From contig JBFFED010000003.1 of the NCBI GenBank assembly GCA_041559015.1, positions 7,495-71,494 on the forward strand: a DNA stretch of 64,000 nucleotides, read 5' to 3'. Position 1 is the first letter of the stretch. Each line of letters begins with the position of its first letter. Of the stretch, positions 23,620-60,122 are shown piece by piece. Origin of the DNA: Thermoplasmata archaeon (GTDB lineage Archaea > Thermoplasmatota > Thermoplasmata > UBA10834). The notes beneath the pieces were generated by a model that saw only the letters and a list, made by a program, of their open reading frames with translations, made no database searches and had not been told where the DNA came from. Position numbers and translations under genes: made by a program.

Positions 23620-23806
23620 CCCGGCGGACGAATGCGGGGTGGCGCCTAATGGGTTGCAGCTACATGCAGTGTACGGGGCATGCCACACGCAGATGCGCAC
23701 ACGTTACGCATGGGCCCGTGCGTGGCCATGACGACAAGGGATGTCTGTCATGGGCTGTAGAAATCATTTTAGGCAGAATTCGCGTTAAACCCCTCGGGAT
23801 GCACTC

Positions 23807-44598: not shown

Positions 44599-45723
44599 TC
44601 AGGTCTGCTCGGGCGCTGCGCGCCGCTTGCGCAGGGGCTTTCCCTCGTGGTCGTAGAATCTGCTCTTGAACCAGAGGGACACATTGACCAGGCCTATCAG
44701 AACTGGCACCTCCATGAGGGGTCCTATGACCGCCACGAAGGCGACGATGGAGTATATCCCGAAGGTCGCGACCGCAACGGCTATGGCGAGCTCGAAGTTG
44801 TTGCTGGCGGCTGTGAAGGACTGAGTCGCGGACTGGCCATAGCTGAACCCGAGCCTGTGCGAGAGCCCGAAGCTGAGGAAGAACATGAGCAGGAAGTAGG
44901 CGAGCAGGGGCAACGCGACCCTGGCGACATCCCATGGCCGGCTGATGATCTCCTCGCCCTGGAGCGCGAACATCACCACTATCGTGAAAAGGAGCCCTAC
45001 TAGAGCGAGAGGGCTTATCCTGGGAGCAAAAACGGTATCGTACCACACTCGTCCCTTGTAGCGCCCCAAGAGGAACCAGCTCGCCACCCCGAGGGCGAAC
45101 GGTATCCCCAGGAAGATGAGTACGTTCTTCGCGATCTGAGCCATCGTGATGCCGACCACCGCGGCCTCCGCGGACGGCGCGATGACAGGGGTCATCACCG
45201 TGATGAGCAGGAACGCGAGGACGGAGTACATGAATATCTGGAACACTGAGTTGAGAGCCACGAGGACCGCGCAGTACTCGCAGTCCCCATCCGCGAGCAT
45301 GTTCCATACGAGGACCATCGCTATGCACCTGGCGATGCCTATGAGGATGAGCCCGTTCCTGAACGCTGTCGAGGTCTCATCGGTGCCCGGGAAGGCGAGC
45401 CAAGCAAGGGCGAACATCAGCATTGGGCCTATGGCCCAGTTCAGGACGAGCGAGGTGGTCAGCATCTTCTTGGCCTGTCTGAGCTTGCCCAGCTCGTCGT
45501 AGTGCACCTTGGCCAGTGGCGGATACATCATGACAAGGAGGCCTATGGCTATCGGGAGCGAGACGTCGAACACCTTGATGGAGTCGAGCGTGTCCGCCAG
45601 CTCTGGCACCACGTAGCCGAGGCCAAGCCCCAGGCCCATTGCCAGGAATATCCAGAGGGTCAGGAACTCGTCCAGGAAGGAGAGCCCCTTCCTGGGCGCC
45701 TCGCACGATGGTGCCGCTCCCAT
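44599..45723 (-). CDS. acr3: ACR3-family arsenite efflux permease
   Basis: It has LSFLDEFLTLWIFLAMGLGLGLG and the ACR3 signature IGIARCIAMVLVWN. The ATG at 45723 is chosen because the ORF-track start at 45945 overlaps the upstream ferredoxin gene. Confidence 0.87.
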   Translation of the reverse strand: MGAAPSCEAPRKGLSFLDEFLTLWIFLAMGLGLGLGYVVPELADTLDSIKVFDVSLPIAIGLLVMMYPPLAKVHYDELGKLRQAKKMLTTSLVLNWAIGPMLMFALAWLAFPGTDETSTAFRNGLILIGIARCIAMVLVWNMLADGDCEYCAVLVALNSVFQIFMYSVLAFLLITVMTPVIAPSAEAAVVGITMAQIAKNVLIFLGIPFALGVASWFLLGRYKGRVWYDTVFAPRISPLALVGLLFTIVVMFALQGEEIISRPWDVARVALPLLAYFLLMFFLSFGLSHRLGFSYGQSATQSFTAASNNFELAIAVAVATFGIYSIVAFVAVIGPLMEVPVLIGLVNVSLWFKSRFYDHEGKPLRKRRAAPEQT

Positions 45724-45727
45724 GCTG

Positions 45728-46012
45728 TCAGGCCTTCCCCTGGTGCTCCTCTCTGAGGGCCTTGAGGATATCCCTGATGTCCAGGAGGCTCGGGAACGAG
45801 AGCGCGCCCTCCGGACATTCGGACTGGCACCCTGAGCAGCCGATGATGCAGTTGAAGGGGTTCTTGACGCGCGCCTTCCCGGGCAGGTCATACACGTCGT
45901 GAACGCAGAACTTGACACACGCGCCGCACCCGGTGCACTTCTCATCCAGTATTGTTGGGTACCACGGCACCTTCTCCCTCGGAATGTCCTTGATCGAACT
46001 CACGCCTCTCAC
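45728..46012 (-). CDS. 4Fe-4S dicluster-domain ferredoxin-like protein
   Basis: 94 aa with CTGCGACVKFC and CIIGCSGCQSECP. Confidence 0.72.
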   Translation of the reverse strand: MRGVSSIKDIPREKVPWYPTILDEKCTGCGACVKFCVHDVYDLPGKARVKNPFNCIIGCSGCQSECPEGALSFPSLLDIRDILKALREEHQGKA

Positions 46013-46044
46013 ACCTCCTGCACTCCTCCCCAGGCTCGCCTGGA

Positions 46045-46284
46045 TCAGGCCCTCTCCTTCAATATCTGGACAATCTCTTCCACGGTCGGAATCCTTCCGG
46101 CGGCCACCAAGTCACCGTCTATCGCGAGCCCTGGCGTGGACATCAGCCCACGGTCGACTATCTCGCCTATGTCGGTGACCTTCACGACCTCCGCCTTCAG
46201 GCCCGTCTGCTCGAGGGCCTTCATCACGTTATGCTCGACTCCCCTGCACTTGGGACAGCCCGTCCCGAACACCTCTATCTTCAC
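46045..46284 (-). CDS. Small thioredoxin-fold protein (redox-active disulfide protein 2 type)
   Basis: 79 aa. MKIEVFGTGCPKCRGV has the CxxC at the N-terminus, and the TPGLAIDG cis-Pro region is present. Confidence 0.8.
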   Translation of the reverse strand: MKIEVFGTGCPKCRGVEHNVMKALEQTGLKAEVVKVTDIGEIVDRGLMSTPGLAIDGDLVAAGRIPTVEEIVQILKERA

Positions 46285-46544
46285 CTCTTCACCTCCGAAC
46301 CGACAGACTTGAGCTTGAGATACTCCTGCCAGACGGCGTCCAGGTAATCCTGTTCGCTCCCCGACGGTATGTAGTTGTATATCTTCAGCTGCCTCATGAG
46401 GAACTCCTTGACGGACCCCTCGGCCTGGTCGCCGAGAAGCCTGGCGGCGCGGAGTATGTCATCCAGCTGGGATATCCCCACGCTCTGCCCACCCACGGTT
46501 ATCGTCCTTACGCTTGTTCTCCCCGGACAGCACGCTCCTGGCAT
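46281..46544 (-). CDS. Small hypothetical protein with an N-terminal vicinal cysteine pair
   Basis: 87 aa beginning MPGACCPGRTS. It overlaps the thioredoxin start by 4 nt and lies 7 nt after the permease stop. No family was recognised. Confidence 0.5.
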   Translation of the reverse strand: MPGACCPGRTSVRTITVGGQSVGISQLDDILRAARLLGDQAEGSVKEFLMRQLKIYNYIPSGSEQDYLDAVWQEYLKLKSVGSEVKR

Positions 46545-46551
46545 CTCTTGG

Positions 46552-47673
46552 TCACCCCGCGAACAGACCGAATATCATCCCCGCGGCCGTCGTGAACACG
46601 ACCACGAGCAGGACATAGACGGCTATCTTCTTCTTGCCCATTATCCTCCCGGTCACGAGCACGCTCTGGAACGACAGTTCGGGGTCGGCCAGCAGATACG
46701 CCAGCAGAGGCCCTTTCGCCATCCCGAGGTCGAGGAACATCCTCGCGACCGGCACCTCGACGAGCGTCGGGAAGTACATGAACACGCCGAACAGGACCGC
46801 TATCAGCACCGCGGATAGGTTGTTGCTGCCGAGATACTCTCCCACCACCTCTTCCGGTATGAGCGCGGAGGCCACGCCAGCGACGAACACCCCTATGAGA
46901 AGCAGGGGAATTATCATCTTGGCGAAGAAGTAGGTCTCGTTCATCCACGATCTGTTCTCAGTCCTGGTGTTCGTCCTCCATGCCCATGCGATGGACGCCG
47001 CCACGGTCAGGACGAGGCCCGCGACTCTCAGGCTGAGTGGCATCGGCGCGGTCCCGACCACCAGGATAGACACGAGGAGCACGAACAGCACGCTGCTCTT
47101 GTGTCGAAGCAGCCTTGAGAAAGCCGAGGCCTTCTGAACGGCGACTTCTGGGATGGCGGTGGCCGGGGTGCCCTTCGTGAAGGCGTCATCGGCTCGCGGA
47201 GCAGTACGCGCTCTGAACACTAGCCCTGTCCTCTCGAAGATGAGCATCATGAGTATGCCGATGGTTATCCCGAAGGCTATTGCCAGCACTGCCCTGGCAA
47301 AGGCGATGTCCCATCCGATCAGGCTGCCCGTGTATGTTATCGCGAGGAGGTTGATCGCTGGTCCGGTGAACAGGAAGGTCACCGCGGGGCCGAGGCCCGC
47401 ACCCTTCTTCCATATCCCCGCGAACAGGGGGAGGATCGTACACGAGCAGACGGCGATGAGGAGCCCGGCCACCGACGCTATCGGATATGAGATGTACGCG
47501 GGAGTCTCCTTGCCCAGATACTTCGTGACGGACTCCTTGGTGAAGAGCGCGGACAGAGCACCGGCGATGAAGAAGGCGGGAACGAGGCATATGAGCACGT
47601 GGGCCGAGAGGTAGTTCACCAGGCCGTCGATGCCTGCGATGAAGAGGGAGCCGAGGTAATCGAGGACGCTCAT
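46552..47673 (-). CDS. Permease of the UPF0718/DUF318 (ArsP/YraQ-like) family
   Basis: 373 aa and polytopic, with the Cys pair in TM context IAVCSCTILPLFAGIWKKG. Confidence 0.78.
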   Translation of the reverse strand: MSVLDYLGSLFIAGIDGLVNYLSAHVLICLVPAFFIAGALSALFTKESVTKYLGKETPAYISYPIASVAGLLIAVCSCTILPLFAGIWKKGAGLGPAVTFLFTGPAINLLAITYTGSLIGWDIAFARAVLAIAFGITIGILMMLIFERTGLVFRARTAPRADDAFTKGTPATAIPEVAVQKASAFSRLLRHKSSVLFVLLVSILVVGTAPMPLSLRVAGLVLTVAASIAWAWRTNTRTENRSWMNETYFFAKMIIPLLLIGVFVAGVASALIPEEVVGEYLGSNNLSAVLIAVLFGVFMYFPTLVEVPVARMFLDLGMAKGPLLAYLLADPELSFQSVLVTGRIMGKKKIAVYVLLVVVFTTAAGMIFGLFAG

Positions 47674-47682
47674 CCTATCTTC

Positions 47683-47759
47683 TCAAGTATTTCTAACAAA
47701 GTTGAAATATCCTGACGACTATAAGGGCTTTGTGGTTTCAAAGAAAATTGAAGTATCCT
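47683..47759. promoter_or_regulatory. Repeated motif in the divergent permease/arsR intergenic region
   Basis: TTGAAATATCCT (47702-47713) and TTGAAGTATCCT (47748-47759) match at 11 of 12 positions, 46 nt apart. A third related copy, TCAAGTAT, is at 47683-47690. The stretch is AT-rich. Confidence 0.3.
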
Positions 47760-47779
47760 TGAGGGGGACCGTCAGGGAG

Positions 47780-48109
47780 ATGGAGGTGCCTCCAGAGGTG
47801 TCCAGGGGGATGAACGAGATCGGGGGCGCGAAGTCATTGGAGAGGGGGATCCCCAGACCAGACCGCATCACCGCGGTGGCCAGGCATCACATGGCCCTCT
47901 CGGACGAGATAAGGCTGAGATTGCTGTACGCCCTTTCTGTGACCGACCTGTGCCCCTGCATAATGAAGATGCTGTCCGGCACCAGCGACTCGAAGCTGTC
48001 CTATCACCTGAAGCTGCTCGAGTCCGAGGGGCTGATTACCGCGAAGCGCGTCAAGAACTGGCGGATATACTCGATATCAGAGAAGGGCCGCAGATCGCTC
48101 AAGCTCTGA
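47780..48109 (+). CDS. arsR: ArsR/SmtB-family metalloregulator
   Basis: The HTH region is ALSDEIRLRLLYALSVTDLCPCIMKMLSGTSDSKLSYHLKLLESEGLI, with a CPC pair in the alpha3-equivalent position. The ATG at 47780 is preferred over the TTG at 47702. Confidence 0.83.
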   Translation: MEVPPEVSRGMNEIGGAKSLERGIPRPDRITAVARHHMALSDEIRLRLLYALSVTDLCPCIMKMLSGTSDSKLSYHLKLLESEGLITAKRVKNWRIYSISEKGRRSLKL

Positions 48110-48142
48110 AGCGACCTACGCTCATAACCGGGGGATCACGGC

Positions 48143-49123
48143 GTGGCGAAGAGGAGGACCAAGGAAGAACAGGACAGGAAGCGGTTGCTCTCCGAAGGCT
48201 ACACTGAATGCTCGGGCTGCGGCACGCTCCTCAAGCCAAAGGCAAGGAGGTGCGGCAAGTGCGGGACACTCACATACTCTGCCAAGAAGGCCATCTACGC
48301 CATCGCGGCCGTGGCGATGGTGGTGGCCGCCTCCGTTCTTGCCTACGCATACTATCCACGAGATGAGTACAGAGTGCTCCCCAGCGTGGTGGAGTTCTCC
48401 CCGAGCGGCTACGGTGCCTCGACGGGGACCCACATCACGGCGACATTCAACCGGCCCATGGACCGGGTTTCAGTCGAATCCTCGTTCACCATCCATCCGA
48501 CGGTCACGGGATCGTTCTCGTGGGCAGGGACGACGATGACATTCACGCCATCGAGCCCGCTGCTGGACCAGACATATTACACCGCGACGGTCGGGTCGGG
48601 CGCGAGGGATGCGGACGGCTCGCAGCTGGACTGTGTCGTCTTCACGTGGTCATTCTTCACTGGCAGCCTTCCGACTGAGAGAAGAGATGTTGGGACCGGC
48701 CCAGAAGACTTCTGGACAGTCTACCCGCCCTCGCACCCGTCGAGCGGCGGCTCGGTGCAACACCCCCAGTGGGTGCTCTCAGCCCTCGAGAGCGGAGTTG
48801 TGTTGATATTCGACCACAGCGAGGGGTGCGCCCCGTGCATCACGCAGGGGACCATATGCGAGGCAATCTCCTCCGCCAACCCGGATATCAGGTATTACGA
48901 CCTCTTGTCCGGAACGGACGAGCCGCAGGCATCCGAGGCGTTCGCGGCGTACGACCCCTCTGGAGGCATACACTATGTCCCGCTCACCATCGTGATCACA
49001 TGGGTGCAGTCGCCATATGGCGGCGTGGCAGTCGGGTGGCATAGCTGGGAGGGCGTCATCGACCAGACCTCCCTCATGAGCTGGATCGCCGATGCGAAAT
49101 CACACTATGATGGGAACAGTTGA
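48143..49123 (+). CDS. Membrane protein: cytosolic zinc ribbon, TM helix, extracytoplasmic Ig-like (SbsA/Big_5-type) domain and thioredoxin-fold domain (CAPC)
   Basis: The zinc ribbon is CSGCGTLLKPKARRCGKCG and the TM helix is IYAIAAVAMVVAASVLAYAY. The Ig-like segment is FSPSGYGASTGTHITATFNRPMDRVSVESSFTIHP...TFTPSSPL. The Trx-like part is VLIFDHSEGCAPCITQ with a cis-Pro (HYVPLT). Confidence 0.65.
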   Translation: MAKRRTKEEQDRKRLLSEGYTECSGCGTLLKPKARRCGKCGTLTYSAKKAIYAIAAVAMVVAASVLAYAYYPRDEYRVLPSVVEFSPSGYGASTGTHITATFNRPMDRVSVESSFTIHPTVTGSFSWAGTTMTFTPSSPLLDQTYYTATVGSGARDADGSQLDCVVFTWSFFTGSLPTERRDVGTGPEDFWTVYPPSHPSSGGSVQHPQWVLSALESGVVLIFDHSEGCAPCITQGTICEAISSANPDIRYYDLLSGTDEPQASEAFAAYDPSGGIHYVPLTIVITWVQSPYGGVAVGWHSWEGVIDQTSLMSWIADAKSHYDGNS

Positions 49124-49137
49124 GGCCGTGCAGTACC

Positions 49138-50541
49138 ATGAACCCCAGGCGTCTATCCCTCTTTGTCATCGTCTCATGCCTTCTTGTGGTGGTCGCCCTT
49201 GCGGCGTTGGCCTCTTCGTGGTTCGACGATCAAGGGCAGAGCCTTGGCCAGCCAGCCGACATGTTCGAGGTCGATGACAGGCTCGGGCAGCGGGTGTCTC
49301 TGGCAGACAACGTGGGCAAGGTGACTGTGATTCATTTCACCCAGGTGGAGAACCCGCTCTGCATCGAATGCGAGGCATATATTCGTCTTCAGATAGAGGA
49401 GCTCGAGAGCCTAGTGGGTTCGACGGGCTCGGAGATAGACGTGATCACGGTGAACATCCGCAAGAACCCTTATTCTGAGACGGGCTGGAAACTTGTTGAG
49501 GACTGGTACGGCACGAACATAAGCTGGCACTGGATAGAGGAGTCCGAGCCTTTCCCAGTCTCGAGCGCGTACTTGCAGTACTGGGACGTCAGCGGGGCCT
49601 TCTCCAACCCGACCCTCGTGCTGGTCGACCAGGACCTCACCGTGGTAGGCGTGTACAACGTCTACTGCATAGGCAAGGGCGTGGTCGACGGGGTTCGAAG
49701 CGCAAGTGAGCTGGAGGAGGATGCCGCTGCGATCCTGGCCGGCGAGTGGACCCTGCCTTCAGATGGCTCCGCAGGGGAGGCCGTGGTCGGCGTCGGAGGG
49801 ATGTTCCTGCTGGGGGTCATAACCTCGTTCTCTCCGTGTTCCCTCGCGCTCCTGATGGCCGTCATCTCGTTCATCGGGGCCGCGGCCATGGGCTCGGGGA
49901 GGCAAGAGGGCGTACCGTCGAGACATCAGTCCTTGGGCCTGAGAATCGGCATCGCCTTCACGGGCGGAACCGCACTGGTGTTCCTCATCTTCGGGCTGGC
50001 GATCTCCTACATAGGCAGCTTCGTCCAGATGTCATCGACTTTCTACCTCATCTCCGGAATCATACTCGTGGTCCTGGGGATTAACATAATCCGTCCGATC
50101 GGGGACCTGCTCAGGAGAGGGTTGTCAGCTATACGTGAAGGGCCCTCGTGCCCGATGCCACCCGCAGGCGGGCAAGAGAACACCCTGCAGGGAAGGCTGA
50201 AGTCGTTGAGCCGGAGGTCCCCCGAGCTCGCAGGGTTCCTGCTAGGCATCCTGTTCTCCCTTGGATGGGCGCCCTGCGCCCTGTCCCTAGTGTTCCCAGT
50301 CCTGATACTGCTGATATCCCAGAACATCTCGATGTTGACCGGTGGGATACTCATGCTCGCGTTCGGGCTCGGACACGGGGTCGCGATCATACCGTTCTGC
50401 GCCGCCACTAGCGAGATAAAGGGAGCCCTCGGCAACAAGTACATCTTCCTGTCGAGATGGATTCAGGTGATATTCGCAGGGGCGGTTGTCATCATCGGAA
50501 TCCTCTTCGCTGCGAGGTATTTCGGCTTCAACCTGTGGTGA
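49138..50541 (+). CDS. Fusion of a TlpA/redoxin-like domain (CIEC) with a CcdA/DsbD-type transmembrane electron transporter
   Basis: An N-terminal anchor is followed by GKVTVIHFTQVENPLCIECE. A 6-TM CcdA-like core then carries the two conserved Cys residues (SFSPCSLALL and LGWAPCALSL). The alternative TTG start at 49120 overlaps the previous stop. Confidence 0.8.
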   Translation: MNPRRLSLFVIVSCLLVVVALAALASSWFDDQGQSLGQPADMFEVDDRLGQRVSLADNVGKVTVIHFTQVENPLCIECEAYIRLQIEELESLVGSTGSEIDVITVNIRKNPYSETGWKLVEDWYGTNISWHWIEESEPFPVSSAYLQYWDVSGAFSNPTLVLVDQDLTVVGVYNVYCIGKGVVDGVRSASELEEDAAAILAGEWTLPSDGSAGEAVVGVGGMFLLGVITSFSPCSLALLMAVISFIGAAAMGSGRQEGVPSRHQSLGLRIGIAFTGGTALVFLIFGLAISYIGSFVQMSSTFYLISGIILVVLGINIIRPIGDLLRRGLSAIREGPSCPMPPAGGQENTLQGRLKSLSRRSPELAGFLLGILFSLGWAPCALSLVFPVLILLISQNISMLTGGILMLAFGLGHGVAIIPFCAATSEIKGALGNKYIFLSRWIQVIFAGAVVIIGILFAARYFGFNLW

Positions 50542-50791: not shown

Positions 50792-50923
50792 ATGGACGCA
50801 ACCGCAATCGAAGGGCTGACCAAGCGCTACGGAGACTCAGCCGCAGTCGACCACACAGGCCTCAAGATTGGCGAGGGCGAGTTCTTCGGCCCGCTCATTA
50901 GCGGCATCGTCGGTGGACATTAG
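50792..50923 (+). pseudogene. 5' remnant of an ABC-transporter ATP-binding protein gene
   Basis: The 43 codons read MDATAIEGLTKRYGDSAAVDHTGLKIGEGEFFG and then diverge (PLISGIVGGH*) exactly where Walker A (GLLGPNGAGKT) is expected. No remainder of the gene follows. Confidence 0.6.
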
Positions 50924-51010: not shown

Positions 51011-54000
51011 ATGACGGAAGGATTCGCACCCCAGCAGTCCTTCATGGACCGTGCCATCGAACTAGAGAGGCAATATGATTGGCTCGGGGCGGCAGGGACC
51101 TACGAAGAGGCCCTGAAGTCGCTTCCCAAGACCGAGCCCCTGAGAACCGGTGACATCCTCGAGCGGAGAGCCTATGCTCTGTACAAGGGGGCGCTGCAGG
51201 CTGAGAACGTCGAGGAGTTCGAGGGCAGCGCGGACAGGGCGACCAAGGCGTACGAGGAGGCGAAGGCCATTTACCTCACAGCCGAGAATGAGTACGGCAA
51301 GCCGAGGGTGAGCAGGTGCGATGCCATGCTCGCCTTCATGACATTCCTGAGAGCGGCCGACGCGGACCATAGACGGACGGCGGCCTGCGAATCCTGGAAT
51401 CATGCGAAGGGCTCCCTGGACGCTTTCGCCTCCCTTGATGAGATGCACGAGTTCTGCAGGACATTCTATGATCTTTCATTGGCTGCGATCTACTACTCCA
51501 ATCTCGTGCCCGATTACGAGACCAGGAAGAAGGCTTGGACCGAAGCGACCAGTTGTGGGGAGAGAGCAGCCACGTTCGCCCTTGCGGATGAGGACCAAGA
51601 CCTCTGCATAGGAATTCTGGTCCTCGTGGCGGCCCTACTGCACAGGGGAGGCTACTGCGGGCTCTGTGATGAATCCCCTCAGTACTGTCACGAGCAATCG
51701 ATTGACCTCTGGAGGAAGGCCGATTCACTGTCGAAGGACAAAGCCCTCTCAAGCGCACCCATAGCATGGATTACGGGAGATGCCGTGATCGATTCCTCAT
51801 GGGACACGGCCACGCAACTGGAGGCTTTCAGGAAGGCACTCGAGTTGGTCCGCCCGTCAAGAAACAGATTGATTATCGGGCATGCTCATGCTGCGGTCTC
51901 GTTCTTCGCCCACTGGATAGGAGACCTGAATGAGGATCCGGAACAGGGCAGTGCGCTGATGGCCGAAGCCCTGGAGAGTGCTCTGGAGGCCGGGCGTGAG
52001 TTTCTGAAGATTGGGTTCTTGGCTGAGACAGGGCACAACATATGGGTCATGTCACCCCAGTCAGATTACTATGTATTCATGGCTCGTAACGAGAAGGATC
52101 TCAAGAAGAAACGGCAGTACACGGAAGAGGGACTCAAGGCCTTTCCTGAGTATGAGAGGCTCTCACGTCTGGCTGGGTATACATGGCAGACATTGAGTGT
52201 CGAGGGCAGTAACGGCAGCCTTCTATGGAGTATGGCGATGACTGAGGCAGAAACGGGCACTAAGCGCACCCTGCTGCAGAAGGGCGTGGACCTTCTTAGG
52301 AAGTCCGCTGAGCGTCTCGAGATATGGGACTCCGGGAATCCGTACAACCTCGGCATATTCCACTTCTGGCTAGCCTTTGCTCTGAATGACCTGGCTGAGA
52401 CGACCTCGGACAAGGATTCCAGGGCTAGAATCATCCGAGAGGCAATACTCGTGGGGGAGAAATCGAACCGAGAATACGAGGAAGGAATGAAGGCCGCATA
52501 CATGGCACAGGACCAGCCAACCGTGGCGGGCCTGGCCTGGGGCCTTGATCGACTTGGACGAGCGTATTGCAGCCTCTTTGAACTCGAGCGCGATCGCGAC
52601 CTCCTCAGACACGCCCTGGAATCCTATGAGAAGGCCAGTGAGTTGTACACGGACAGCATGAGTCCGAGCATGGCCGCGGAGAGCCTCTGGAAAGCTGCAA
52701 GGATCTACGACCAACTTGAGAACCACGTGAGATCCGGAGAGAGATTCCTGTCGGCTTCGAGAGGTTACAGAGAGGGTGCGGAGAAGATACCTAGTCTCAA
52801 GGACTTGTTCTCTGAGCAGGCGACGTACCTGGAGGCCTGGGCCGAGTTCGAGAAGGCCAAGCACTGTCATTCGCGTCAGGAGTACCTGCAGGCCCACTCG
52901 CACTTCGAGAAGGCGGCTCAGCTGCATGAAGGACTTGACAAATGGCGGTTCCTCTCATCCAATTACCGCGCATGGGCGCTCGCCGACAAGGCAGAGGCGC
53001 TCAGCAGAGAAGACAGGCGGGCCGAGGCAGCCAAGGCCTTCGAGGAGGCAGCTGACCTTTTCAACGCATCGGGCGTCGCGTTGAAGGAGACAGGGAAGAA
53101 TGCTGAGAATGAAGACGAGAAGCGGATGATCTCTCGCCTGCTTGGCGCGTCTCACCCAAGACGAGAGTACTGCCTAGCGAGGGCGATGATCGAGAGGGCC
53201 CGTCAGATGGATGTCAACGGCATGAGCTCGTCGAGCAGCGAGATGTACCGTACTGCCGCGGACGAGCTCGAACGGCTCGCCAGCGAGGCGATATCCGAGA
53301 AAGACCGGAAGGACATCAAGCTGCTCGCCGTCATTTCAAGGGCCTGGCAGAAGATGAACCAGGCAGAAGCTGAGATCTCCCCGGAGCCATATGCCCATGC
53401 CGCACTCCTGTTCGAGGAGGTGAAAGAGCTCAGCACGAACGACAAGGCGAAGGCGCTCTCCCTCGGGCACAGTCGATTCTGCATGGCCTTGGAGGCTGGA
53501 ACCAAGTTCGCTGACACCAGGGAACCTGCCTTGCACACGGCCGCCATCAAGAACCTCGAGAGCGCCTCGTCATTCTATGTCAAAGCGGGCGCGGACAGAT
53601 GCTCGGAGTACGCTCGGGCCAGCAAGTTGCTGTTCGACGCCTATGCCTACCTTGCAGAAGCAGGCCAAGAGAAGGACCAGGAGAAGGCAGCGAAGACCTA
53701 CGCAAGGGCAGAGAAGGTCCTTAAGGCCTCTTCGGATTCATATGACAGGGCCGGACAGGGAGCGAAGAAGGACCAGGTGCTCAAGCTCCTCGAGAGGGTG
53801 AGGAAAGAGCGCGAGTTGGCCGTTTCGCTTATGGAAGTCTTCGAGGCCCCCACTGGAGCCTCCTCGACCGATGCATTCGGTGCCCCTATGCCGTCCCAGG
53901 AAGAAGCCGTTGGCCTGGACCGCTTCGCTCATGCGGATGTGCAGGCTGCTCTGATAATCCAGAGGAACGACGTCAAAGTCGGAGACGATATGGCAATCGA

Positions 54001-54334
54001 GATAGAGCTGGTGAACGCGGGCAGGGCCTCTGCGCAGCTCACCAAAGTGGAAAACATCATTCCTGTGGGGTTCGACGTACTCTCGAAGCCTGCGACTTAC
54101 CGCATAGAGGACAGCTACATCATGATGAAGGGTAAGCGGCTCGACCCGCTCAAGACGGAAGAGATCGCTCTCGTACTGAGGCCGAAGGTCCAGGGCAGAT
54201 TCACGCTCAGACCGAGGATACTGTACATAGATGACGAGGGTTCGTACAAGGTGCGCGAGGTCGAAGGGTGCGAGATCACCGTGAAGGAGCTCGGGGTCGC
54301 GGGCTGGCTGAAAGGACCAGAGAGGGCCAAATAG
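51011..54334 (+). CDS. Large (1107 aa) alpha-solenoid (SNAP/TPR-like repeat) protein with a C-terminal beta-sandwich domain, paralog A
   Basis: Uninterrupted ORF with AGGAGG 5 nt upstream of the ATG. Helix-pair repeats of the type AAE..W.AA..YD run throughout. The C-terminal ~140 aa are beta-rich (IELVNAGRASAQLTKV). It has no signal peptide, TM helix or P-loop. It is collinear with the next ORF. Confidence 0.8.
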   Translation: MTEGFAPQQSFMDRAIELERQYDWLGAAGTYEEALKSLPKTEPLRTGDILERRAYALYKGALQAENVEEFEGSADRATKAYEEAKAIYLTAENEYGKPRVSRCDAMLAFMTFLRAADADHRRTAACESWNHAKGSLDAFASLDEMHEFCRTFYDLSLAAIYYSNLVPDYETRKKAWTEATSCGERAATFALADEDQDLCIGILVLVAALLHRGGYCGLCDESPQYCHEQSIDLWRKADSLSKDKALSSAPIAWITGDAVIDSSWDTATQLEAFRKALELVRPSRNRLIIGHAHAAVSFFAHWIGDLNEDPEQGSALMAEALESALEAGREFLKIGFLAETGHNIWVMSPQSDYYVFMARNEKDLKKKRQYTEEGLKAFPEYERLSRLAGYTWQTLSVEGSNGSLLWSMAMTEAETGTKRTLLQKGVDLLRKSAERLEIWDSGNPYNLGIFHFWLAFALNDLAETTSDKDSRARIIREAILVGEKSNREYEEGMKAAYMAQDQPTVAGLAWGLDRLGRAYCSLFELERDRDLLRHALESYEKASELYTDSMSPSMAAESLWKAARIYDQLENHVRSGERFLSASRGYREGAEKIPSLKDLFSEQATYLEAWAEFEKAKHCHSRQEYLQAHSHFEKAAQLHEGLDKWRFLSSNYRAWALADKAEALSREDRRAEAAKAFEEAADLFNASGVALKETGKNAENEDEKRMISRLLGASHPRREYCLARAMIERARQMDVNGMSSSSSEMYRTAADELERLASEAISEKDRKDIKLLAVISRAWQKMNQAEAEISPEPYAHAALLFEEVKELSTNDKAKALSLGHSRFCMALEAGTKFADTREPALHTAAIKNLESASSFYVKAGADRCSEYARASKLLFDAYAYLAEAGQEKDQEKAAKTYARAEKVLKASSDSYDRAGQGAKKDQVLKLLERVRKERELAVSLMEVFEAPTGASSTDAFGAPMPSQEEAVGLDRFAHADVQAALIIQRNDVKVGDDMAIEIELVNAGRASAQLTKVENIIPVGFDVLSKPATYRIEDSYIMMKGKRLDPLKTEEIALVLRPKVQGRFTLRPRILYIDDEGSYKVREVEGCEITVKELGVAGWLKGPERAK
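53909..54331 (+). other. C-terminal beta-sandwich-like domain of paralog A
   Basis: VGLDRFAHADVQAALIIQ...IELVNAGRASAQLTKVENIIPVGFDV...GWLKGP shows a CARDB/DUF11-like alternation pattern. About half of its positions are identical to paralog B by eye. Confidence 0.45.
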
Positions 54335-54368
54335 GCAGAGTAAATGGATTCACAAACGGTCTGGAAAC

Positions 54369-57300
54369 ATGGCAGAGGATAGAGCGGACCTGGAGACACT
54401 AATACGGGGTGCGAAGGAGAAGGAGAGGCTATACAACTGGCAGGAAGCAGGAGCCCTCTACTCCAGGGCCTTGGAACTCGTCGCGGAGAAGGATGCGATG
54501 AAGAGGGGCACCCTCGAGGAGAGCCTCGGCTACTCTATCCACAGACATGCGTTCCAAGCTAGGACGCCGGAGGAGTTCTCGAAGAGGATAGAGAACGCCC
54601 TGGGTGTGTACGGGAGGGCCGAGAAGGACTTCGAAGGGAGCACAGACCCGACTGCAGGGGCCAGAGCAGCGAGATGCAGGGCGATGTCCAGCTATCTGAG
54701 GTTCTGGCTTGAGCCTGATTTCGTCAAGAAAAGAGAGCACGTCAACAGCGCATGGAGCCACGCAAAGACAGCGCTCGAATCATCATTGACGACAGGAGAC
54801 CATGCCCAGCTGGGAAAGACCTGCAACGACACATTCCTTGCCGTGGTCCTTTCATACGATTTCGAGCCTGGAGTGGCCGAGAGGACCTCGATTCTCTCAG
54901 ATATCATGAGGTATGTCAGCGAAGCGGTTGAACACCCAGTCGAACCGAGGCAGCACGCGGAGAACCTCGTTCAGCTGGCAGGATGGCTTGAGGTCTCTAT
55001 GGCGTTCCTCCCCAACATGGTCGCACAACTGGAAGAGACCATCAAGAGAGCTCACACATCCTGGCTCAAGGCATGCGAAGTCGACGAGGAGGCTGCGCTC
55101 CTGGAGAGGACGAAGACAGACCTGCTGTTTGGGCTTGACTGGTCCACCTGCGGTTTACAGGGCACGCCTACCAGTGGTGAGATCCTGATGGCCGTCACCG
55201 AACGCCAACTGGCGGTCGCCGAGAAGGCAGGTGACAGGCTTGCGATCGGCAATGCAAAGAGCGTGAAGGCGGGAAACCTGGTCTGGGACACCGCCACCAT
55301 AGAGGACCCTGATGAGCTCAAGATAGCCATCGAGGAGATAGAGCAAGTCTCTGAGGATGCCAGACGCGAGTTCGGGGCAATCTCATTCGTCTCTCCTGAC
55401 TACCTGACGGGTCATTGGACATCAGCACCGAGTTCGCCATGGACTTACGCAATGCAGAGCTGGAGAGAGATGGATCTGAATAAGAAACGGCGCATCGCAT
55501 CCCAGGGGCTCGAACGGGCGCGTGAACAGCTCGCATTTGCCGAGAAGACGCATTATCCGTATGTGGTGACAAGTGCACACTACACCATGGGGTTCCTGCT
55601 GTTAGAGGTCGCAAAATGCGAAGACGACCTCAAACGGAGGCGAGCACTCCTGCGCGAGTCAGTCAGACACAATGACATAAACATAGCGGGAGAGGACACC
55701 TATCATCAATCACAGTTTTGGAACAGGGGAGTAGCTCTTTGTCAGATGGCCCGGACCGAGGTAGAGCTAGGCAGAATCACAGAAGACAAGAAGGAGAGAT
55801 TGCGTCTATTGCGTTCTTCTGCCTCTCACACAAGAGAGGGACTGGAACTCTGCGAGACGACGCTTCACACATTCGTCGGAGTCCCCTATGACGTACGCAT
55901 ACTCACCATGTTGGGATTGTTCTGGCTGGACCATGGCCGAATCCAGAGGCTCTGCTGGCGGCAAAGCCGGGACAATAGCGACCTCGAGTCCGCATGCGTC
56001 GCCTTCGAGAGGGCGGCGGAGATTCAGATGGAGGCTGGTGTCCTCAGTCGTGCAGCGGAGAGCTTCTGGGAGGCGGCGCAGGCGTACGACATCGCGGGCA
56101 ATCACACCAGGGCTTCGGACAGTTTCAATCGTGCCGCAGAGAACTATAGAGAGGCGGCGCGGAGAACGAAGCCGCTCAGAGGGTATTTCGAGGACCACGC
56201 ATTGTACATGCAGGGCTGGTCGGAGATAGAAAGGGCCAAACTGTATCACTCGAAACAGGAACCAGCACCCTCGAGTGAGCACTTCAAGAAAGCTTCTGAG
56301 CTTCACGCCTCAACGATGAGATGGAGCTTCCTTGCGTCCAACTACTCTGCCTGGGCAGAGGTCGAGAACGGCGAGGACCTGAGCCAGAAGGAGGACAGCG
56401 CCGCATCAATCGACGCGTTCAAGGACGCTGCGAGATTGTTTCTGGAATCCAAGAAGAACATACGCGCGCATCTCAGCCTCATCACCGACACCGACCTGAA
56501 GCAGATGGCCACAGAGCTCATTGACGCAGTGGACAACAGGCGAGACCTCTGTGAGGCACGCGCTGTCCTGGAATCTGCGCGACAGCTCGACAGGGAAGGC
56601 AAGATGACCGAGGCCGCGGAGAGGTATGGTCGTGGTACTGAGATGCTGCACAAGGTGAGGGAGCGAGTTCGCTCAGAGCAGGACAGGAAGGAAATCGACC
56701 TCAATCTGACACTCACGAACGCCTGGAGGGCGATGGCCAAAGCGGAGACCGAAACCTCCCCCGGACTCTATGAGGAGGCTGCACGCCTCTTCGAGAAGGC
56801 GAAGGACCTCAGCCCAGGTGAGAAGGCGAGGAACTTGGCGATTGGGAACAGCAAGTTCTGCAGGGCCTTAGAGGCGGGCGCGAAGTTCGAGGATACGGGT
56901 GATCAGGCGCTGCACTCAGTTGCGGCTGATAACCTGGAGAGCGCTGCCAGGCATTACATGAAGGCTGGCCAGGACAAAGCGGCGGAATACACTAGGGCGA
57001 GCAGATTGCTTTTCGACGCCTACGTGGCCATGGGCAACGCCAGCAAGGAACGGGAGCACGACAAGAAGGCTTCCCTCTACGCTGTCGCCGAGAAGATACT
57101 GGAGGCGTCTGCGGTGTCCTTCGACAAGGCCCGGCAGCCAGGCAGGAAAGCCCAGATTCGGAGGCTGCTGGAGCGAGTGCAGAGAGACCGGGAGCTGGCC
57201 GTCTCGCTCACACATGTGTTTCGAGCGCCAGACATAGCCTCTGCTGCTGTGGCGATCTCATCGCCATCCTACGAAGTTCCCGTGGGTCTTGACAGGTTCG

Positions 57301-57713
57301 AGCACGCAGATATCCAGGCTACCGTGATAGTGAGGCCGAAAGACATCCAAGTGGGTGAGGACCTGAAGCTCGATATAGAACTTGTGAACGCTGGGAGGGG
57401 GCCCGCCCAGCTGACGAAGGTCGACGGGCTTGTCCCGCCCGGCTTCGACGTCCAGACCGTGCCCGACAGGTACAGGATGGAGAACAGCCACCTCAACATG
57501 AGGGGCAGGCGTCTCGGCTCAATGAAAACGGAGGACATCAAGGTAGTCCTCAGATCGATTGCGCACGGGACATATGTCCTGAAGCCAAGAGTCCTATACC
57601 TCGATGAATCCGGCAAATACAAGTCTTTCGAGCCAGAGGCGGTCACAGTAACGGTGAGAGAGATGGGGATTGGAGGGTGGCTCAAAGGCCCTCAGAAGAG
57701 AGTGACCTCCTAG
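54369..57713 (+). CDS. Large (1114 aa) alpha-solenoid (SNAP/TPR-like repeat) protein with a C-terminal beta-sandwich domain, paralog B
   Basis: It starts 34 nt after paralog A and has the same architecture and the same conserved blocks (AAESFWEAAQAYD, SNYSAWA, VGLDRFEHAD...IELVNAGRGPAQLTKV...GWLKGP). Confidence 0.8.
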   Translation: MAEDRADLETLIRGAKEKERLYNWQEAGALYSRALELVAEKDAMKRGTLEESLGYSIHRHAFQARTPEEFSKRIENALGVYGRAEKDFEGSTDPTAGARAARCRAMSSYLRFWLEPDFVKKREHVNSAWSHAKTALESSLTTGDHAQLGKTCNDTFLAVVLSYDFEPGVAERTSILSDIMRYVSEAVEHPVEPRQHAENLVQLAGWLEVSMAFLPNMVAQLEETIKRAHTSWLKACEVDEEAALLERTKTDLLFGLDWSTCGLQGTPTSGEILMAVTERQLAVAEKAGDRLAIGNAKSVKAGNLVWDTATIEDPDELKIAIEEIEQVSEDARREFGAISFVSPDYLTGHWTSAPSSPWTYAMQSWREMDLNKKRRIASQGLERAREQLAFAEKTHYPYVVTSAHYTMGFLLLEVAKCEDDLKRRRALLRESVRHNDINIAGEDTYHQSQFWNRGVALCQMARTEVELGRITEDKKERLRLLRSSASHTREGLELCETTLHTFVGVPYDVRILTMLGLFWLDHGRIQRLCWRQSRDNSDLESACVAFERAAEIQMEAGVLSRAAESFWEAAQAYDIAGNHTRASDSFNRAAENYREAARRTKPLRGYFEDHALYMQGWSEIERAKLYHSKQEPAPSSEHFKKASELHASTMRWSFLASNYSAWAEVENGEDLSQKEDSAASIDAFKDAARLFLESKKNIRAHLSLITDTDLKQMATELIDAVDNRRDLCEARAVLESARQLDREGKMTEAAERYGRGTEMLHKVRERVRSEQDRKEIDLNLTLTNAWRAMAKAETETSPGLYEEAARLFEKAKDLSPGEKARNLAIGNSKFCRALEAGAKFEDTGDQALHSVAADNLESAARHYMKAGQDKAAEYTRASRLLFDAYVAMGNASKEREHDKKASLYAVAEKILEASAVSFDKARQPGRKAQIRRLLERVQRDRELAVSLTHVFRAPDIASAAVAISSPSYEVPVGLDRFEHADIQATVIVRPKDIQVGEDLKLDIELVNAGRGPAQLTKVDGLVPPGFDVQTVPDRYRMENSHLNMRGRRLGSMKTEDIKVVLRSIAHGTYVLKPRVLYLDESGKYKSFEPEAVTVTVREMGIGGWLKGPQKRVTS
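57282..57710 (+). other. C-terminal beta-sandwich-like domain of paralog B
   Basis: It is homologous to 53909..54331 (see above). Confidence 0.45.
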
Positions 57714-57822: not shown

Positions 57823-58125
57823 TTGAGCGAGGATCCAGAGAAGAGGTTCATCAAGCCGATTACGAACGCTTCGTACCCCGCAACGCTCGCCGCGCTCACG
57901 CTCACGGTCTACAGGGTCGCAGCCATAGGCGGCGACCCGCCGACACTTCTCAAGTACATCTTGCTGATCGGAGCGACCTGCTTCTTGCTCTCTTCAATTT
58001 CATTCTTCTTCTACTCGCTCTATCCCACGAAGACGAGGCTCTGGACCTCCACGGCCCTCTTCTATCTCTTCGGACTCTTCTCGCTGCTCTGCTCTGTATT
58101 CGTCTTGCTTGGGAACCCGACCTAG
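57823..58125 (+). CDS. Small hypothetical membrane protein (3 TM helices)
   Basis: 100 aa with a TTG start and three hydrophobic helices. It lies 109 nt downstream of paralog B on the same strand. Confidence 0.4.
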   Translation: MSEDPEKRFIKPITNASYPATLAALTLTVYRVAAIGGDPPTLLKYILLIGATCFLLSSISFFFYSLYPTKTRLWTSTALFYLFGLFSLLCSVFVLLGNPT

Positions 58126-58168: not shown

Positions 58169-58849
58169 CTATCCGCCAAGCAGTATGGTGACGACAACAA
58201 CCACTGCGCCGAGGAGTGTGAGGCCGAGCGCTGTCTTGAGAGGGTTCTTGTCCGTGTACTTCGCATACTCGACACCGGTGAAGAAGAGCATGGTCATGAC
58301 GATGCCGTTCGATATTCTGATGGCAGGTTCCATCTCACCGATGAAGTAGAACGGCATTATCGCCGGGAGTGTCGTCAGGAAGGTCACGACGAAACAGAAC
58401 ATCCCTCCAGTGATGTCATCCCTCGTGATCTTCGCCACGGGTGGGTGCAGGCGTATCACATGATCCAGTATCTCCTCGTTGAGCTTCTTCCTCTCGTCAC
58501 ACCCGAGCATCCACTCGAAAGGTGGGCTGAACTCCCCGTCGATGATCGAGAGCGCCTCATCGCCCGTCATGGCGCTCGTTGCGTCCTTGACCATCTTCAA
58601 GGACTTGTTCCTGTTGAAGAGGTTCGTCAGGACGAACATCACGCCGTCGACGATCCCCCAAGCGATGTTGCATCCGAGGACGGCGAAGATGAGTGTCTGG
58701 ATACCCTCCTCTGTGTCAGGCACTGCGCGGCTGACGGTGCTCGAGACCGTGATGACCATGATGAGGGCGTAGATTATCTCCTGCAACCTGCCCACTGGGG
58801 TTATCTGCTTATCGATGAACTTCTCAATCCTGAACGGCAGTGATTCCAC
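58169..58849 (-). CDS. VIT1/CCC1-like (vacuolar iron transporter family) membrane protein
   Basis: 226 aa with a 2 TM + ~70-aa soluble insert + 3 TM layout. The G.N.A.G..DG-like motif is GCNIAWGIVDG, and the C-terminus is ALGLTLLGAVVVVVTILLGG. The assignment rests on architecture only. Confidence 0.5.
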   Translation of the reverse strand: MESLPFRIEKFIDKQITPVGRLQEIIYALIMVITVSSTVSRAVPDTEEGIQTLIFAVLGCNIAWGIVDGVMFVLTNLFNRNKSLKMVKDATSAMTGDEALSIIDGEFSPPFEWMLGCDERKKLNEEILDHVIRLHPPVAKITRDDITGGMFCFVVTFLTTLPAIMPFYFIGEMEPAIRISNGIVMTMLFFTGVEYAKYTDKNPLKTALGLTLLGAVVVVVTILLGG

Positions 58850-59103
58850 GACCGATCACCACCCATTCCCGGACGCACAGCCGCTGCTGCTAGCGGAGTG
58901 TACCTGCATTCCCCGATGCATTCGCCAATCCCTCCAGCTGTTCTGGCGCAGACTGAGGTCGTCCACTCATGGCTCAGTCCCGTCAAATCCCAACATCTAG
59001 TTCTCCGGAGATAAGCATATTGCAGGCCTCTGGAGGCCTCCGAAGGGATAATGCCCCCCGAGGACAGATGCAGGTACAGAAGGACGGGCCGGACGGGAGG
59101 AGC

Positions 59104-59796
59104 ATGATGGCACGAGTCTTGGCATTCAACTGCAGCCCCAGGATGGAGAAGGGAAACACGGCGCTGATCCTGAACACGTTCATCGACGGTATGAGGGGAG
59201 TGGGAGCGGACGTCGAGCTGCTCTACACGAGGAAGCTGAGGGTCAAACCCTGCATAGGCGATTTCCGATGTTGGGGCGATACCCCGGGCGTCTGTACCCT
59301 GCGCGACGACATGGAATCCGTTCTCAGCAAGATGGCCAGCGCCGAGACCTGGGTGTTTGGGGTCCCGGTCCACGCGAAGCTGCCTGGTGAACTCCAGAAC
59401 CTGTTCAACAGGACCATGCCTCTCTTCAAGCCGAACGTCCAAGTACGGGGTCGCACGCTCATCCCGACCCGGATGAAGCACGTCATGGTCGAGAGGGTCG
59501 CCCTCGTATCCACCTGCGGCTGGTGGGGGCTCGAGAACTTCGACCTCCTGGTCAAGGACTTCGAGTTCATGGCCAAGATATTCGACGTACCCTTGATGCG
59601 CCCCTTGCTCAGGCCTGAGGCCGACATCTTCCGTAGGAGGTCTAGGGAGGGCGATAGTGTCTGCATCGATATCTTGGGAGCAGCCGAACAGGCTGGGGCT
59701 CAGCTAGTGAAGAAGGGCGACATCAGCAAGGAGGTCGCTCGAAAGGTACAGGTCCCCCTCAAGACCCTGGATGAGTTCCTCGCCAAGAACAGCTGA
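59104..59796 (+). CDS. Flavodoxin-fold NAD(P)H-dependent FMN reductase / iron-sulfur-flavoprotein-like protein
   Basis: The pattern VLAFNCSPRMEKGNT...VKPCIGDFRCWGDTPGVCTLRDDM...ETWVFGVPVH fits. The ATG at 59104 is preferred over the ORF-track start at 58969. Confidence 0.72.
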   Translation: MMARVLAFNCSPRMEKGNTALILNTFIDGMRGVGADVELLYTRKLRVKPCIGDFRCWGDTPGVCTLRDDMESVLSKMASAETWVFGVPVHAKLPGELQNLFNRTMPLFKPNVQVRGRTLIPTRMKHVMVERVALVSTCGWWGLENFDLLVKDFEFMAKIFDVPLMRPLLRPEADIFRRRSREGDSVCIDILGAAEQAGAQLVKKGDISKEVARKVQVPLKTLDEFLAKNS

Positions 59797-59846
59797 AGGA
59801 GGCCATAGCCCTGGCTCAGGGCATTGCCGGCAACGACCAAACCCGC

Positions 59847-60122
59847 CTACATCTCGTCGATCTCTTCCTTGCCCTTCTCGAGCTCGCGCACCTGCTCCTT
59901 GTCCTTCATGAGCAGCAGCGCGAGGAATTCGCCCACGTGCGTCTTCTCCTCTTTGGCGACGTCCATGAAGCAGGCCTTCATCTTCCTGTCCGATGTCAGG
60001 GCCGCCATCTGCTCGTAAAGATTGGTGGCGTCGAGTTCGGCTATGATCCCCAGCCGGAGCATCTGCATATCAAGCATCGCTTTCGGCAACTTCACTCCAT
60101 CTACTGCTGATTTCGCCAGCAT
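59847..60122 (-). CDS. Half-ferritin / EncFtn-like (rubrerythrin-superfamily) small protein
   Basis: 91 aa. ELDATNLYEQMA...AKEEKTHVGEF gives the E...Y and ExxH di-iron ligand spacing of encapsulated-ferritin-like proteins. No encapsulin shell gene lies nearby. Confidence 0.55.
   Translation of the reverse strand: MLAKSAVDGVKLPKAMLDMQMLRLGIIAELDATNLYEQMAALTSDRKMKACFMDVAKEEKTHVGEFLALLLMKDKEQVRELEKGKEEIDEM

Follow-up and report, generated by a model that had tools for sequence, protein, structure and literature searches.

Two adjacent genes, here called paralog A and paralog B, lie on the forward strand of a 64,000-nucleotide stretch of DNA from a Thermoplasmata archaeon (GenBank assembly GCA_041559015.1, contig JBFFED010000003.1, positions 7,495 to 71,494), which is referred to at its full length as the window and whose own numbering is used for the coordinates. 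A and B are intact, diverged paralogs belonging to a large uncharacterised archaeal family, and each of them is formed by a tetratricopeptide repeat (TPR)-like superhelix, a disordered linker and a DUF11/BatD/TRAP-beta-like beta-sandwich, followed by a short tail. Considering that in relatives this core is joined to interchangeable output domains, we read it as a signalling input module (sensor or scaffold) of the one-component type, a reading to which we assign a probability of roughly 45%. The parts of the pair are as follows.

51011-54334, + strand: paralog A, 1107 aa (open reading frame and translation)
51023-53842, + strand: alpha-superhelix of A, TPR-like, residues 5-944 (AlphaFold2 model)
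53939-54286, + strand: beta-sandwich of A, residues 977-1092 (AlphaFold2 model)
54287-54319, + strand: tail of A, ELGVAGWLKGP, residues 1093-1103
54369-57713, + strand: paralog B, 1114 aa (open reading frame and translation), with the architecture of A
57312-57659, + strand: beta-sandwich of B, approximately residues 982-1097
57660-57692, + strand: tail of B, EMGIGGWLKGP, residues 1098-1108

The two genes are co-directional and separated by 34 nt, a gap that suggests their co-transcription, and the ATG of A is preceded by GGAGG 5 nt upstream. An earlier reading of the window, made from the sequence alone (the sequence-only reading), had described them as collinear, full-length paralogs, and its open reading frames were exact. 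In BLASTP the proteins gave a single end-to-end collinear alignment with 34% identity and 53% positives (E = 0). By segments, the identity was 24% in residues 1-250, 26% in residues 251-550, 44% in residues 551-945 and 50% over the last 136 residues, in agreement with the "roughly half" that had been estimated by eye for the last ~135. At the nucleotide level just one stretch of 792 nt could be aligned, at 64%, so the duplication is old, as had been supposed. The lower-GC patch in which the pair was said to lie does exist, and it is a modest one: GC was 0.57-0.58 in the pair against roughly 0.60-0.63 upstream, and GC at third codon positions (GC3) was 0.72 in A and 0.70 in B, where 11 further genes of the window had 0.78-0.87. 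We calculated the ratio of nonsynonymous to synonymous divergence (dN/dS) against the related contigs L067 and L008. It was 0.13-0.14 for A and 0.14-0.17 for B; together with the 0.12 obtained for a small gene downstream of B, which encodes a protein with three transmembrane segments (the 3-TM gene), these values of 0.12-0.17 indicate purifying selection on all three genes, and the pair is not decaying. The orthologs of B shared 65-79% identity with it. It was also observed that the synonymous divergence (dS) between the window (51011-57713) and L067 (L067:3195-9896) is mosaic, being 0.17-0.26 in codons 1-830 of A, 1.09 in codons 831-1107 of A and 0.7-1.7 along B; for the 3-TM, VIT1 and FMN_red genes it is 0.65-0.76, and for the DsbD-like gene upstream 1.26. 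The comparison with L008 gave the reverse pattern, B being closer than A. The mosaic suggests a recent recombination tract spanning most of A.

The structure of A was modelled with AlphaFold2 from a 19-sequence family alignment with 58 invariant columns, and the model obtained had a mean pLDDT of 87.7 and a pTM of 0.71. Residues 5-944 were folded into 37 helices, residues 946-971 formed a disordered linker, residues 977-1092 the beta-sandwich, and residues 1094-1107 a disordered tail with pLDDT below 50. In the comparison with the PDB by Foldseek, A was matched by long superhelical TPR scaffolds, namely Ctr9, the TPR subunits of IFT-A, Ski3 and subunits of APC/C, with E-values from 1e-10 to 1e-6 and a probability of 1.0; since the TM-scores were 0.2-0.3 and the identity 10-13%, this likeness is a generic similarity of repeat folds. 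The fold search in BFVD, the viral structure library, gave generic TPR, Sel1, SNAP and DUF11 matches only. The C-terminal domain of A taken alone was similar to TRAP-beta chains, with target-normalised TM-scores of 0.57-0.63 and a root mean square deviation of 2.6-3.3 Å over 124-128 columns.

With Pfam, sub-threshold matches were seen to SNAP and TPR models around residues 510-600 and to BatD, DUF11 and TRAP_beta around residues 980-1070. The SNAP model (PF14938) scored 17.3 bits in A and 20.2 bits in B, under its cut-off of 25, and the best SNAP match spanned residues 527-597. The TPR models remained below their gathering thresholds in A (TPR_10, 18 bits against 27.5) as in B (TPR_1, 16.6 against 27.8; TPR_12, 11.3 against 30.1), and so did the curated models for the beta-sandwich (BatD, 18 against 24.1; DUF11, 13.6-14.5 against 24.6; TRAP_beta, 12.6 against 22.4) and TIGR01451 in one relative (19.2 against 24). 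The model, the Foldseek matches and the positions of these weak profile matches agree with the SNAP/TPR-like solenoid and the CARDB/DUF11-type beta-sandwich that the sequence-only reading had recognised. No Walker A pattern and no hydrophobic segment of transmembrane grade was found in A or B, and both are cytoplasmic proteins with no catalytic motif, as the sequence-only reading had it; because there is no signal peptide, the beta-sandwich of both is placed in the cytoplasm. In A the superhelix begins at residue 5, and Pfam gave no match in A or B to a STAND-type P-loop nucleoside triphosphatase (NTPase; NB-ARC, NACHT, AAA_16) N-terminal to the repeats. HisKA, HATPase and REC were not matched in A or B at E<=1, and neither Pfam nor NCBIfam revealed an output domain in them. 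The NCBIfam and PDB sequence searches with A and B gave no match, and no characterised family reached significance above threshold in Pfam, NCBIfam, PADLOC or the PDB.

Relatives were searched first by a word-indexed search and then by an exhaustive profile search over 1.84 billion representatives. The former returned full-length relatives in 13 clusters for A and 7 for B, with E-values down to 0, and the latter 1680, 1011 and 533 representative clusters at E<=1e-3, 1e-10 and 1e-30, respectively; most of the best 150 matches covered the whole profile. B matched the family profile with 1589 bits over positions 1-1104, and A likewise over its full length. A scan of one genome per GTDB species gave 57 species-representative loci, nearly all of them in metagenome-assembled genomes (MAGs) of Bathyarchaeia or Thermoplasmata/Methanobacteriota, and several genomes carried 2-5 dispersed copies. 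The species representatives closest to A were a "Euryarchaeota RBG_19FT" MAG (56%) and Thermoplasmata UBA9653 (51%). In the neighbour-joining tree of 192 sequences A and B were located in different clades, each beside its own orthologs, so they are not sisters. Conservation per column was 1.3-1.8 bits in residues 1-550 and 2.0-2.4 bits in residues 551-1100, a bipartite pattern that would suit a variable half for recognition and a conserved half for relay. No Pfam or NCBIfam model covers the family, and no description of it was found in the literature searches.

Some members of this collection deserve a comment. Family fragments were seen on contigs of 2.7-10.7 kb assigned to bacteria (L044; L052, an Acidiferrales MAG; L056, a Eubacteriales MAG), and a homolog of the small 3-TM protein (P0192) is on a 34-kb contig with the NCBI name "[Eubacterium] cellulosolvens". 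These assignments are probably errors of binning or labelling, because the distribution is otherwise archaeal. In nine loci (L026, L039, L040, L042, L043, L053, L062, L065 and L066) the family gene was split by frame or represented only by an open reading frame of 300-750 aa; these are mostly long-read (MFD) or low-coverage assemblies, where sequencing frameshifts are indistinguishable from real pseudogenes.

The evidence that carries the input-module reading comes from the domains fused to the core. The architectures of ~230 family sequences were counted, of which 140 were core-only and 91 extended past the beta-sandwich, so that a C-terminal domain is added to the core in ~40% of the relatives examined. 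The commonest addition, in 51 members, is a winged helix of ~115 aa with the motif AGWR..M.IV...YG...G..L..GLVE.RIF.GERGRGG. Its AlphaFold2 model had a pLDDT of 90.5, and its 50 best PDB matches were all winged-helix proteins, among them TFE-alpha, the winged-helix domain of Orc1/Cdc6, AbfR2, PadR/LmrR and RTP. A KaiC-like domain was found in 20 members (PF06745, 1.5e-9), and it is inactivated, since the Walker A motif is absent in 20/20. An AAA domain (PF00004, 8e-9) was present in 11 members, with Walker A and Walker B intact in all and weak similarity to YjoB, BCS1 and VCP; A and B each have relatives with this fusion, at 51-55% identity. Seven members (L049, L054, L055, L058, L060, L061 and P0109) had a 305-aa extension identified by Pfam as CN_hydrolase (2.4e-9), with the FPE and CRD motifs retained. 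Single cases were a class III nucleotidyl cyclase (PF00211, Guanylate_cyc, 6.9e-20) and DUF835 (PF05763, 1.4e-17). The inactivated KaiC-like domain (iKaiC) and DUF835 are both listed as output domains of response regulators in the archaeal two-component census (PMC5847659). At the other end of the protein, a PadR-like winged helix was added N-terminally in 9 members (E 0.021 against the PDB) and a FilR1 middle domain in one. Throughout the tree, members with the different outputs were mixed with core-only forms. A search of the window for trans-encoded homologs of the fused domains (AAA, KaiC, winged helix and hydrolase) found none.

A and B belong to the core-only forms. They end in ...KELGVAGWLKGPERAK and ...REMGIGGWLKGPQKRVTS, respectively, where the tail motif (ELGVAGWLKGPERAK in A, EMGIGGWLKGPQKRVTS in B) is followed by 4-6 residues before the stop. 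Counting as a tail any W[LI]KG within 10 residues of the C-terminus, 121 of the 140 core-only members end in ...KELG[IV]xGW[LI]KG plus 0-10 residues, and the motif is kept at the junction in 2 of the 91 extended members. Tail and fused C-terminal domain are, in consequence of these counts, mutually exclusive. The tail is predicted to be disordered, yet it holds a column that is among the best conserved in the family. Because a conserved disordered terminus excludes the fused domain, the most likely reading of ELGxxGWLKG is a short docking motif serving in place of a fused output.

A candidate for what such a tail would dock to is encoded downstream of B.

57823-58125, + strand: 3-TM protein, 100 aa, TTG start

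This mini-ORF had been pointed out as a neighbour worth examining, and it proved to be a real, conserved gene (25 clusters, and the dN/dS of 0.12 given above) that recurs beside tail-bearing family members. The protein has a conserved N-terminal segment, RFIKPITNASYP, and a YPT[KR] loop, both of which are predicted by the positive-inside rule to be cytoplasmic. By means of a profile hidden Markov model, the gene was located at <=150 nt from family genes in the independent loci L008, L004/5, L011, L029 and L048, with a remnant in L046; the family genes that it adjoins span different clades and orientations. We also took an unbiased sample of 80 metagenome loci from the side of the 3-TM gene. 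About 20 of them had a family gene or a beta-sandwich gene within 250 nt, which made it the largest neighbour cluster, followed by a helix-turn-helix (HTH)-like protein of 260 aa (12 loci) and a 148-aa protein (10 loci). The tail was present in all 17 of the 3-TM-adjoining family genes with a readable C-terminus (17/17), an outcome with a chance probability of ~2e-4 if 60% of the members are tail-bearing and relatedness is ignored. The 3-TM gene is, then, a recurrent and facultative neighbour, and among family genes it accompanies tail-bearing members only.

A membrane protein of 566 aa, encoded at L075:1047-2747 (also L076:507-2207) with the 3-TM gene directly after it, is of help in deciding which part of the core the neighbour follows. 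Its order is a signal or transmembrane segment, TSP3-type Ca-binding repeats in an extracellular domain, a second transmembrane segment, RRRRK, a Zn-ribbon, and the beta-sandwich with the tail. The beta-sandwich is located after the RRRRK stop-transfer signal; together with the tail it is 40% identical to residues 977-1102 of A, and the protein ends in KEIGILEWMKGER, the tail taking the form GW[LM]KG. As this protein has the 3-TM gene and no solenoid, the 3-TM protein tracks the module of beta-sandwich and tail and not the solenoid. By its layout the L075 protein looks like a receptor version of that module. The possibility that the link between 3-TM gene and family is a by-product of synteny with VIT1 was considered and rejected: VIT1 is involved only in the lineage of the window and in L070, and elsewhere the association with the family is independent of it. 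As a separate observation, in L072:3378-8015 and L077:1956-6532, which belong to another lineage and have no solenoid gene nearby, the 3-TM gene converges, at a distance of 25-90 nt, on a gene cluster encoding two response regulators and two histidine kinases, one of the latter a PAS hybrid.

In prokaryotic signal transduction, an input module of the one-component type is recognised by a constant core to which DNA-binding, second-messenger and ATPase domains are attached interchangeably, and it is in this sense that we read the family. These fusions in relatives support the earlier, looser suggestion that the pair is a scaffold or sensor. In the mechanism that we propose, the core (a ~940-aa TPR-like superhelix, a flexible linker and an Ig-like beta-sandwich) would be the input module, and A and B would be versions of it that lack an output and use the tail for signalling. 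Specificity for ligand or partner would lie in the N-terminal half of the solenoid, which is variable (A and B share 24-26% identity there), and relay of the signal in the conserved C-terminal half together with the beta-sandwich and the tail, with the downstream 3-TM protein as a candidate receiver. Taken to its end, the proposal is that core, tail and 3-TM protein constitute an undescribed archaeal signalling route, in which a docking motif makes the connection between a cytoplasmic TPR sensor and a membrane protein. This extended version we consider doubtful. If it were true, one receiver would take different inputs from paralogs like A and B.

Several points weigh against the input-module reading and its extension to the membrane. 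A and B have no output domain, and their signalling role is carried over from relatives by the logic of shared architecture. All the evidence is computational. The scores behind the winged helix, the commonest fusion, are modest (Foldseek E ~8e-3; profile E 0.02-0.05, of which 0.049 against the Cdc6 winged-helix domain). The 3-TM gene often stands without the family, for example beside VIT1 in L070 or beside the cluster of REC and histidine kinase genes in L072 and L077; it is absent near most tail-bearing members and was present at only ~4 species-representative loci. Finally, the variable C-terminal enzymes are compatible with effector-type, immune-like proteins as well.

This last point leads to another explanation, according to which the family would be an immune-type sensor, with a TPR solenoid for recognition and variable effectors in the manner of STAND/Avs proteins, A and B being effector-less sensors or decoys. 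The swappable C-terminal enzymatic domains agree with it, and so do the several diversifying paralogs per genome with their variable N-terminal half, the atypically low GC3 and the mosaic synonymous divergence that suggests recombination within A. Against it, the commonest added domain is a winged helix and not a toxic effector, no P-loop switch NTPase precedes the repeats, and A and B have no Walker A. The neighbourhoods are made up of housekeeping or metal-homeostasis genes and not of defence islands. A, B, the 3-TM protein and two fused relatives, with AAA and KaiC-like domains, had no match in PADLOC-DB 2.0 (E<=0.1), and the family was not found in the plasmid, phage and IMG/VR collections, so that the defence-type module imagined in the sequence-only reading found no support in these searches. 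We consider the immune explanation unlikely.

It could also be thought that the family serves ATPase machines as a scaffold or adaptor, in the way of SNAP for NSF or of a co-chaperone; the solenoid would then bring substrates to an AAA+/RecA-like hexamer that is fused in some members and, for A and B, encoded in trans. In its favour, the most conserved stretch is where the sub-threshold SNAP matches lie, the AAA domain of 11 members is intact and weakly similar to YjoB, BCS1 and VCP, and the best structural matches (Ctr9, Ski3, the TPR subunits of IFT-A, APC/C) are assembly scaffolds. However, only a minority of the sequences (11 of ~230) have the AAA fusion and the KaiC-like domain is an inactivated one, the SNAP score is below the Pfam threshold and the TPR-like similarity generic, and for the fused ATPases the window has no homolog. 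An adaptor role would also leave the fusions to a winged helix, a cyclase or a hydrolase unexplained, and we hold this role to be improbable.

The sequence-only reading had put forward a maintained two-gene system, and had itself named single homologs in unrelated contexts as the finding that would speak against it. This is what we found, most family genes being single and in unrelated neighbourhoods. Among the 57 species-representative loci, a second family match within the same stretch was seen only in L012/L032, where two or three copies lie within ~15 kb, and in L043. The A-B tandem followed by the 3-TM gene occurs only in the window's own lineage, that is, in L002 (a Logan contig identical to the window), in L067/L068 (90% identity for A and 70% for B) and in L008 (66% and 78%). 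In L004/L005 a B-type gene is followed by an opposite-strand gene, then by a copy from another clade and a third copy, and in L009 an A-type ortholog of 63% identity stands alone. Across 66 family loci no recurrent neighbour other than the 3-TM protein was detected beyond local synteny; clusters of a surface-repeat protein, an ABC ATPase and a ribonucleotide reductase were evaluated as conserved neighbours and rejected, as they reflect local synteny. A dedicated two-gene system is not supported. That A and B form an obligate heteromer, whose paired solenoids act together as one scaffold or sensor, is thus very unlikely: the tandem with its 3-TM gene is kept in three related contigs, the 34-nt gap and the purifying selection on both genes are compatible with it, their C-terminal halves (44-50% identical) could mediate association, and two or three copies also cluster in L004/L005 and L012/L032, but the family is single-copy at most loci, the L009 ortholog has no companion, the AAA-fused proteins nearest to A (L001/L010, L003) and to B (L030) have one family match per stretch, A and B are not sister clades, and the copies clustered elsewhere come from other clades, the second L004 copy being just 37% identical to A.

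For the window, a special two-gene system no longer needs to be postulated, and the interest of the pair is moderate; it is higher as a lead at the level of the family. Signal transduction in uncultivated archaea (Bathyarchaeia, non-methanogenic Thermoplasmata) is largely unmapped, and more than 1000 clusters, with several copies per genome and the fusion pattern described, make this core a major candidate for an input module. Annotations as "hypothetical protein" become testable statements once the core is defined, the rule of exclusion between tail and fusion is applied and the link to the 3-TM gene is considered.

With regard to the surroundings, the window is a segment of an archaeal chromosome, with a ThrRS that has the archaea-specific editing domain, LeuA/homocitrate synthase, glycosyltransferases and other housekeeping genes; the Rfam and tRNA scans of it were empty. 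Upstream of A there is a remnant, given here as context and not as a part of any system.

50792-50923, + strand: remnant of the N-terminus of an ABC-transporter ATPase, 43 aa, broken at the Walker A position

It corresponds to the "ABC-gene stump" that had been noticed before, it is weakly similar to the N-termini of ABC ATPases in other loci, and in the identical Logan contig it was predicted as a gene of 43 aa. In L067 and L008 the same position is occupied by a Peptidase_S51 gene on the opposite strand, so the junction upstream of the pair has been rearranged. The pair lies amid genes of metal and redox homeostasis (44599-50541 and 58169-60122). The upstream genes encode an SBF/ACR3-like transporter, a ferredoxin, a thioredoxin, an ArsP permease, an ArsR-type HTH_5 regulator, a Big_5 protein and a DsbD-like membrane protein, and the downstream ones the VIT1 iron transporter, an FMN reductase and an encapsulated-ferritin-like protein. 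L067 and L008 have the same synteny, which other family loci do not. Further away, at 19189-23700 on the minus strand, there is an open reading frame of 1503 aa whose sole Pfam match is a Lamin Tail Domain at residues 1146-1242 (8.7e-9).

By comparison with known systems, the nearest in logic are the TPR-sensor one-component regulators, that is, the RRNPP receptors (PlcR/NprR), MalT/LAL, AfsR/SARP and the mycobacterial cyclase-ATPase-TPR-HTH proteins, in which a helical-repeat sensor is joined to an HTH, a cyclase or an ATPase in one polypeptide, as it is in this family. In the latter the order is a solenoid of ~1000 aa, then the beta-sandwich and then the output, with no STAND NTPase switch; no sequence similarity to those regulators was detected, and half of the family has the tail instead of a fused output. 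A and B resemble the one-component class in their lack of HisKA, HATPase and REC, and differ from it in the fused output, which is found in their relatives. The eukaryotic proteins Ctr9 (of Paf1C), Ski3 and the TPR subunits of IFT-A and APC/C share with A and B a continuous superhelix of tens of helix-turn-helix repeats over ~900-1300 residues, and have neither the C-terminal beta-sandwich nor the tail motif nor the set of fused domains. SNAP is similar in the rhythm of its TPR-like helical hairpins, and some family relatives are fused to an AAA ATPase. The scores of PF14938 in the family were 17-25 bits against the cut-off of 25, with only P0010 coming close, so the similarity is a resemblance only. 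SNAP is a protein of ~290 aa that acts on SNARE complexes, which are not known in these archaea, and no NSF or SNARE gene was seen in the window. The known members of the DUF11, BatD and TRAP-beta families are extracytoplasmic or located at the surface, whereas the domain of A and B is cytoplasmic. Archaeal response regulators (Galperin et al. 2018, PMC5847659) carry at the C-terminus the same inactivated KaiC-like domain (PF06745) and DUF835 (PF05763) as 20 and 1 members of the family, respectively. Their input is a REC or REC-PAS part that receives the phosphoryl group, while in the family it is the TPR solenoid with the beta-sandwich, and A and B are devoid of any such output domain. A helical-repeat sensor with swappable outputs is of a known kind, to which this family adds a core, a tail rule and a 3-TM neighbour that are undescribed in the resources searched.

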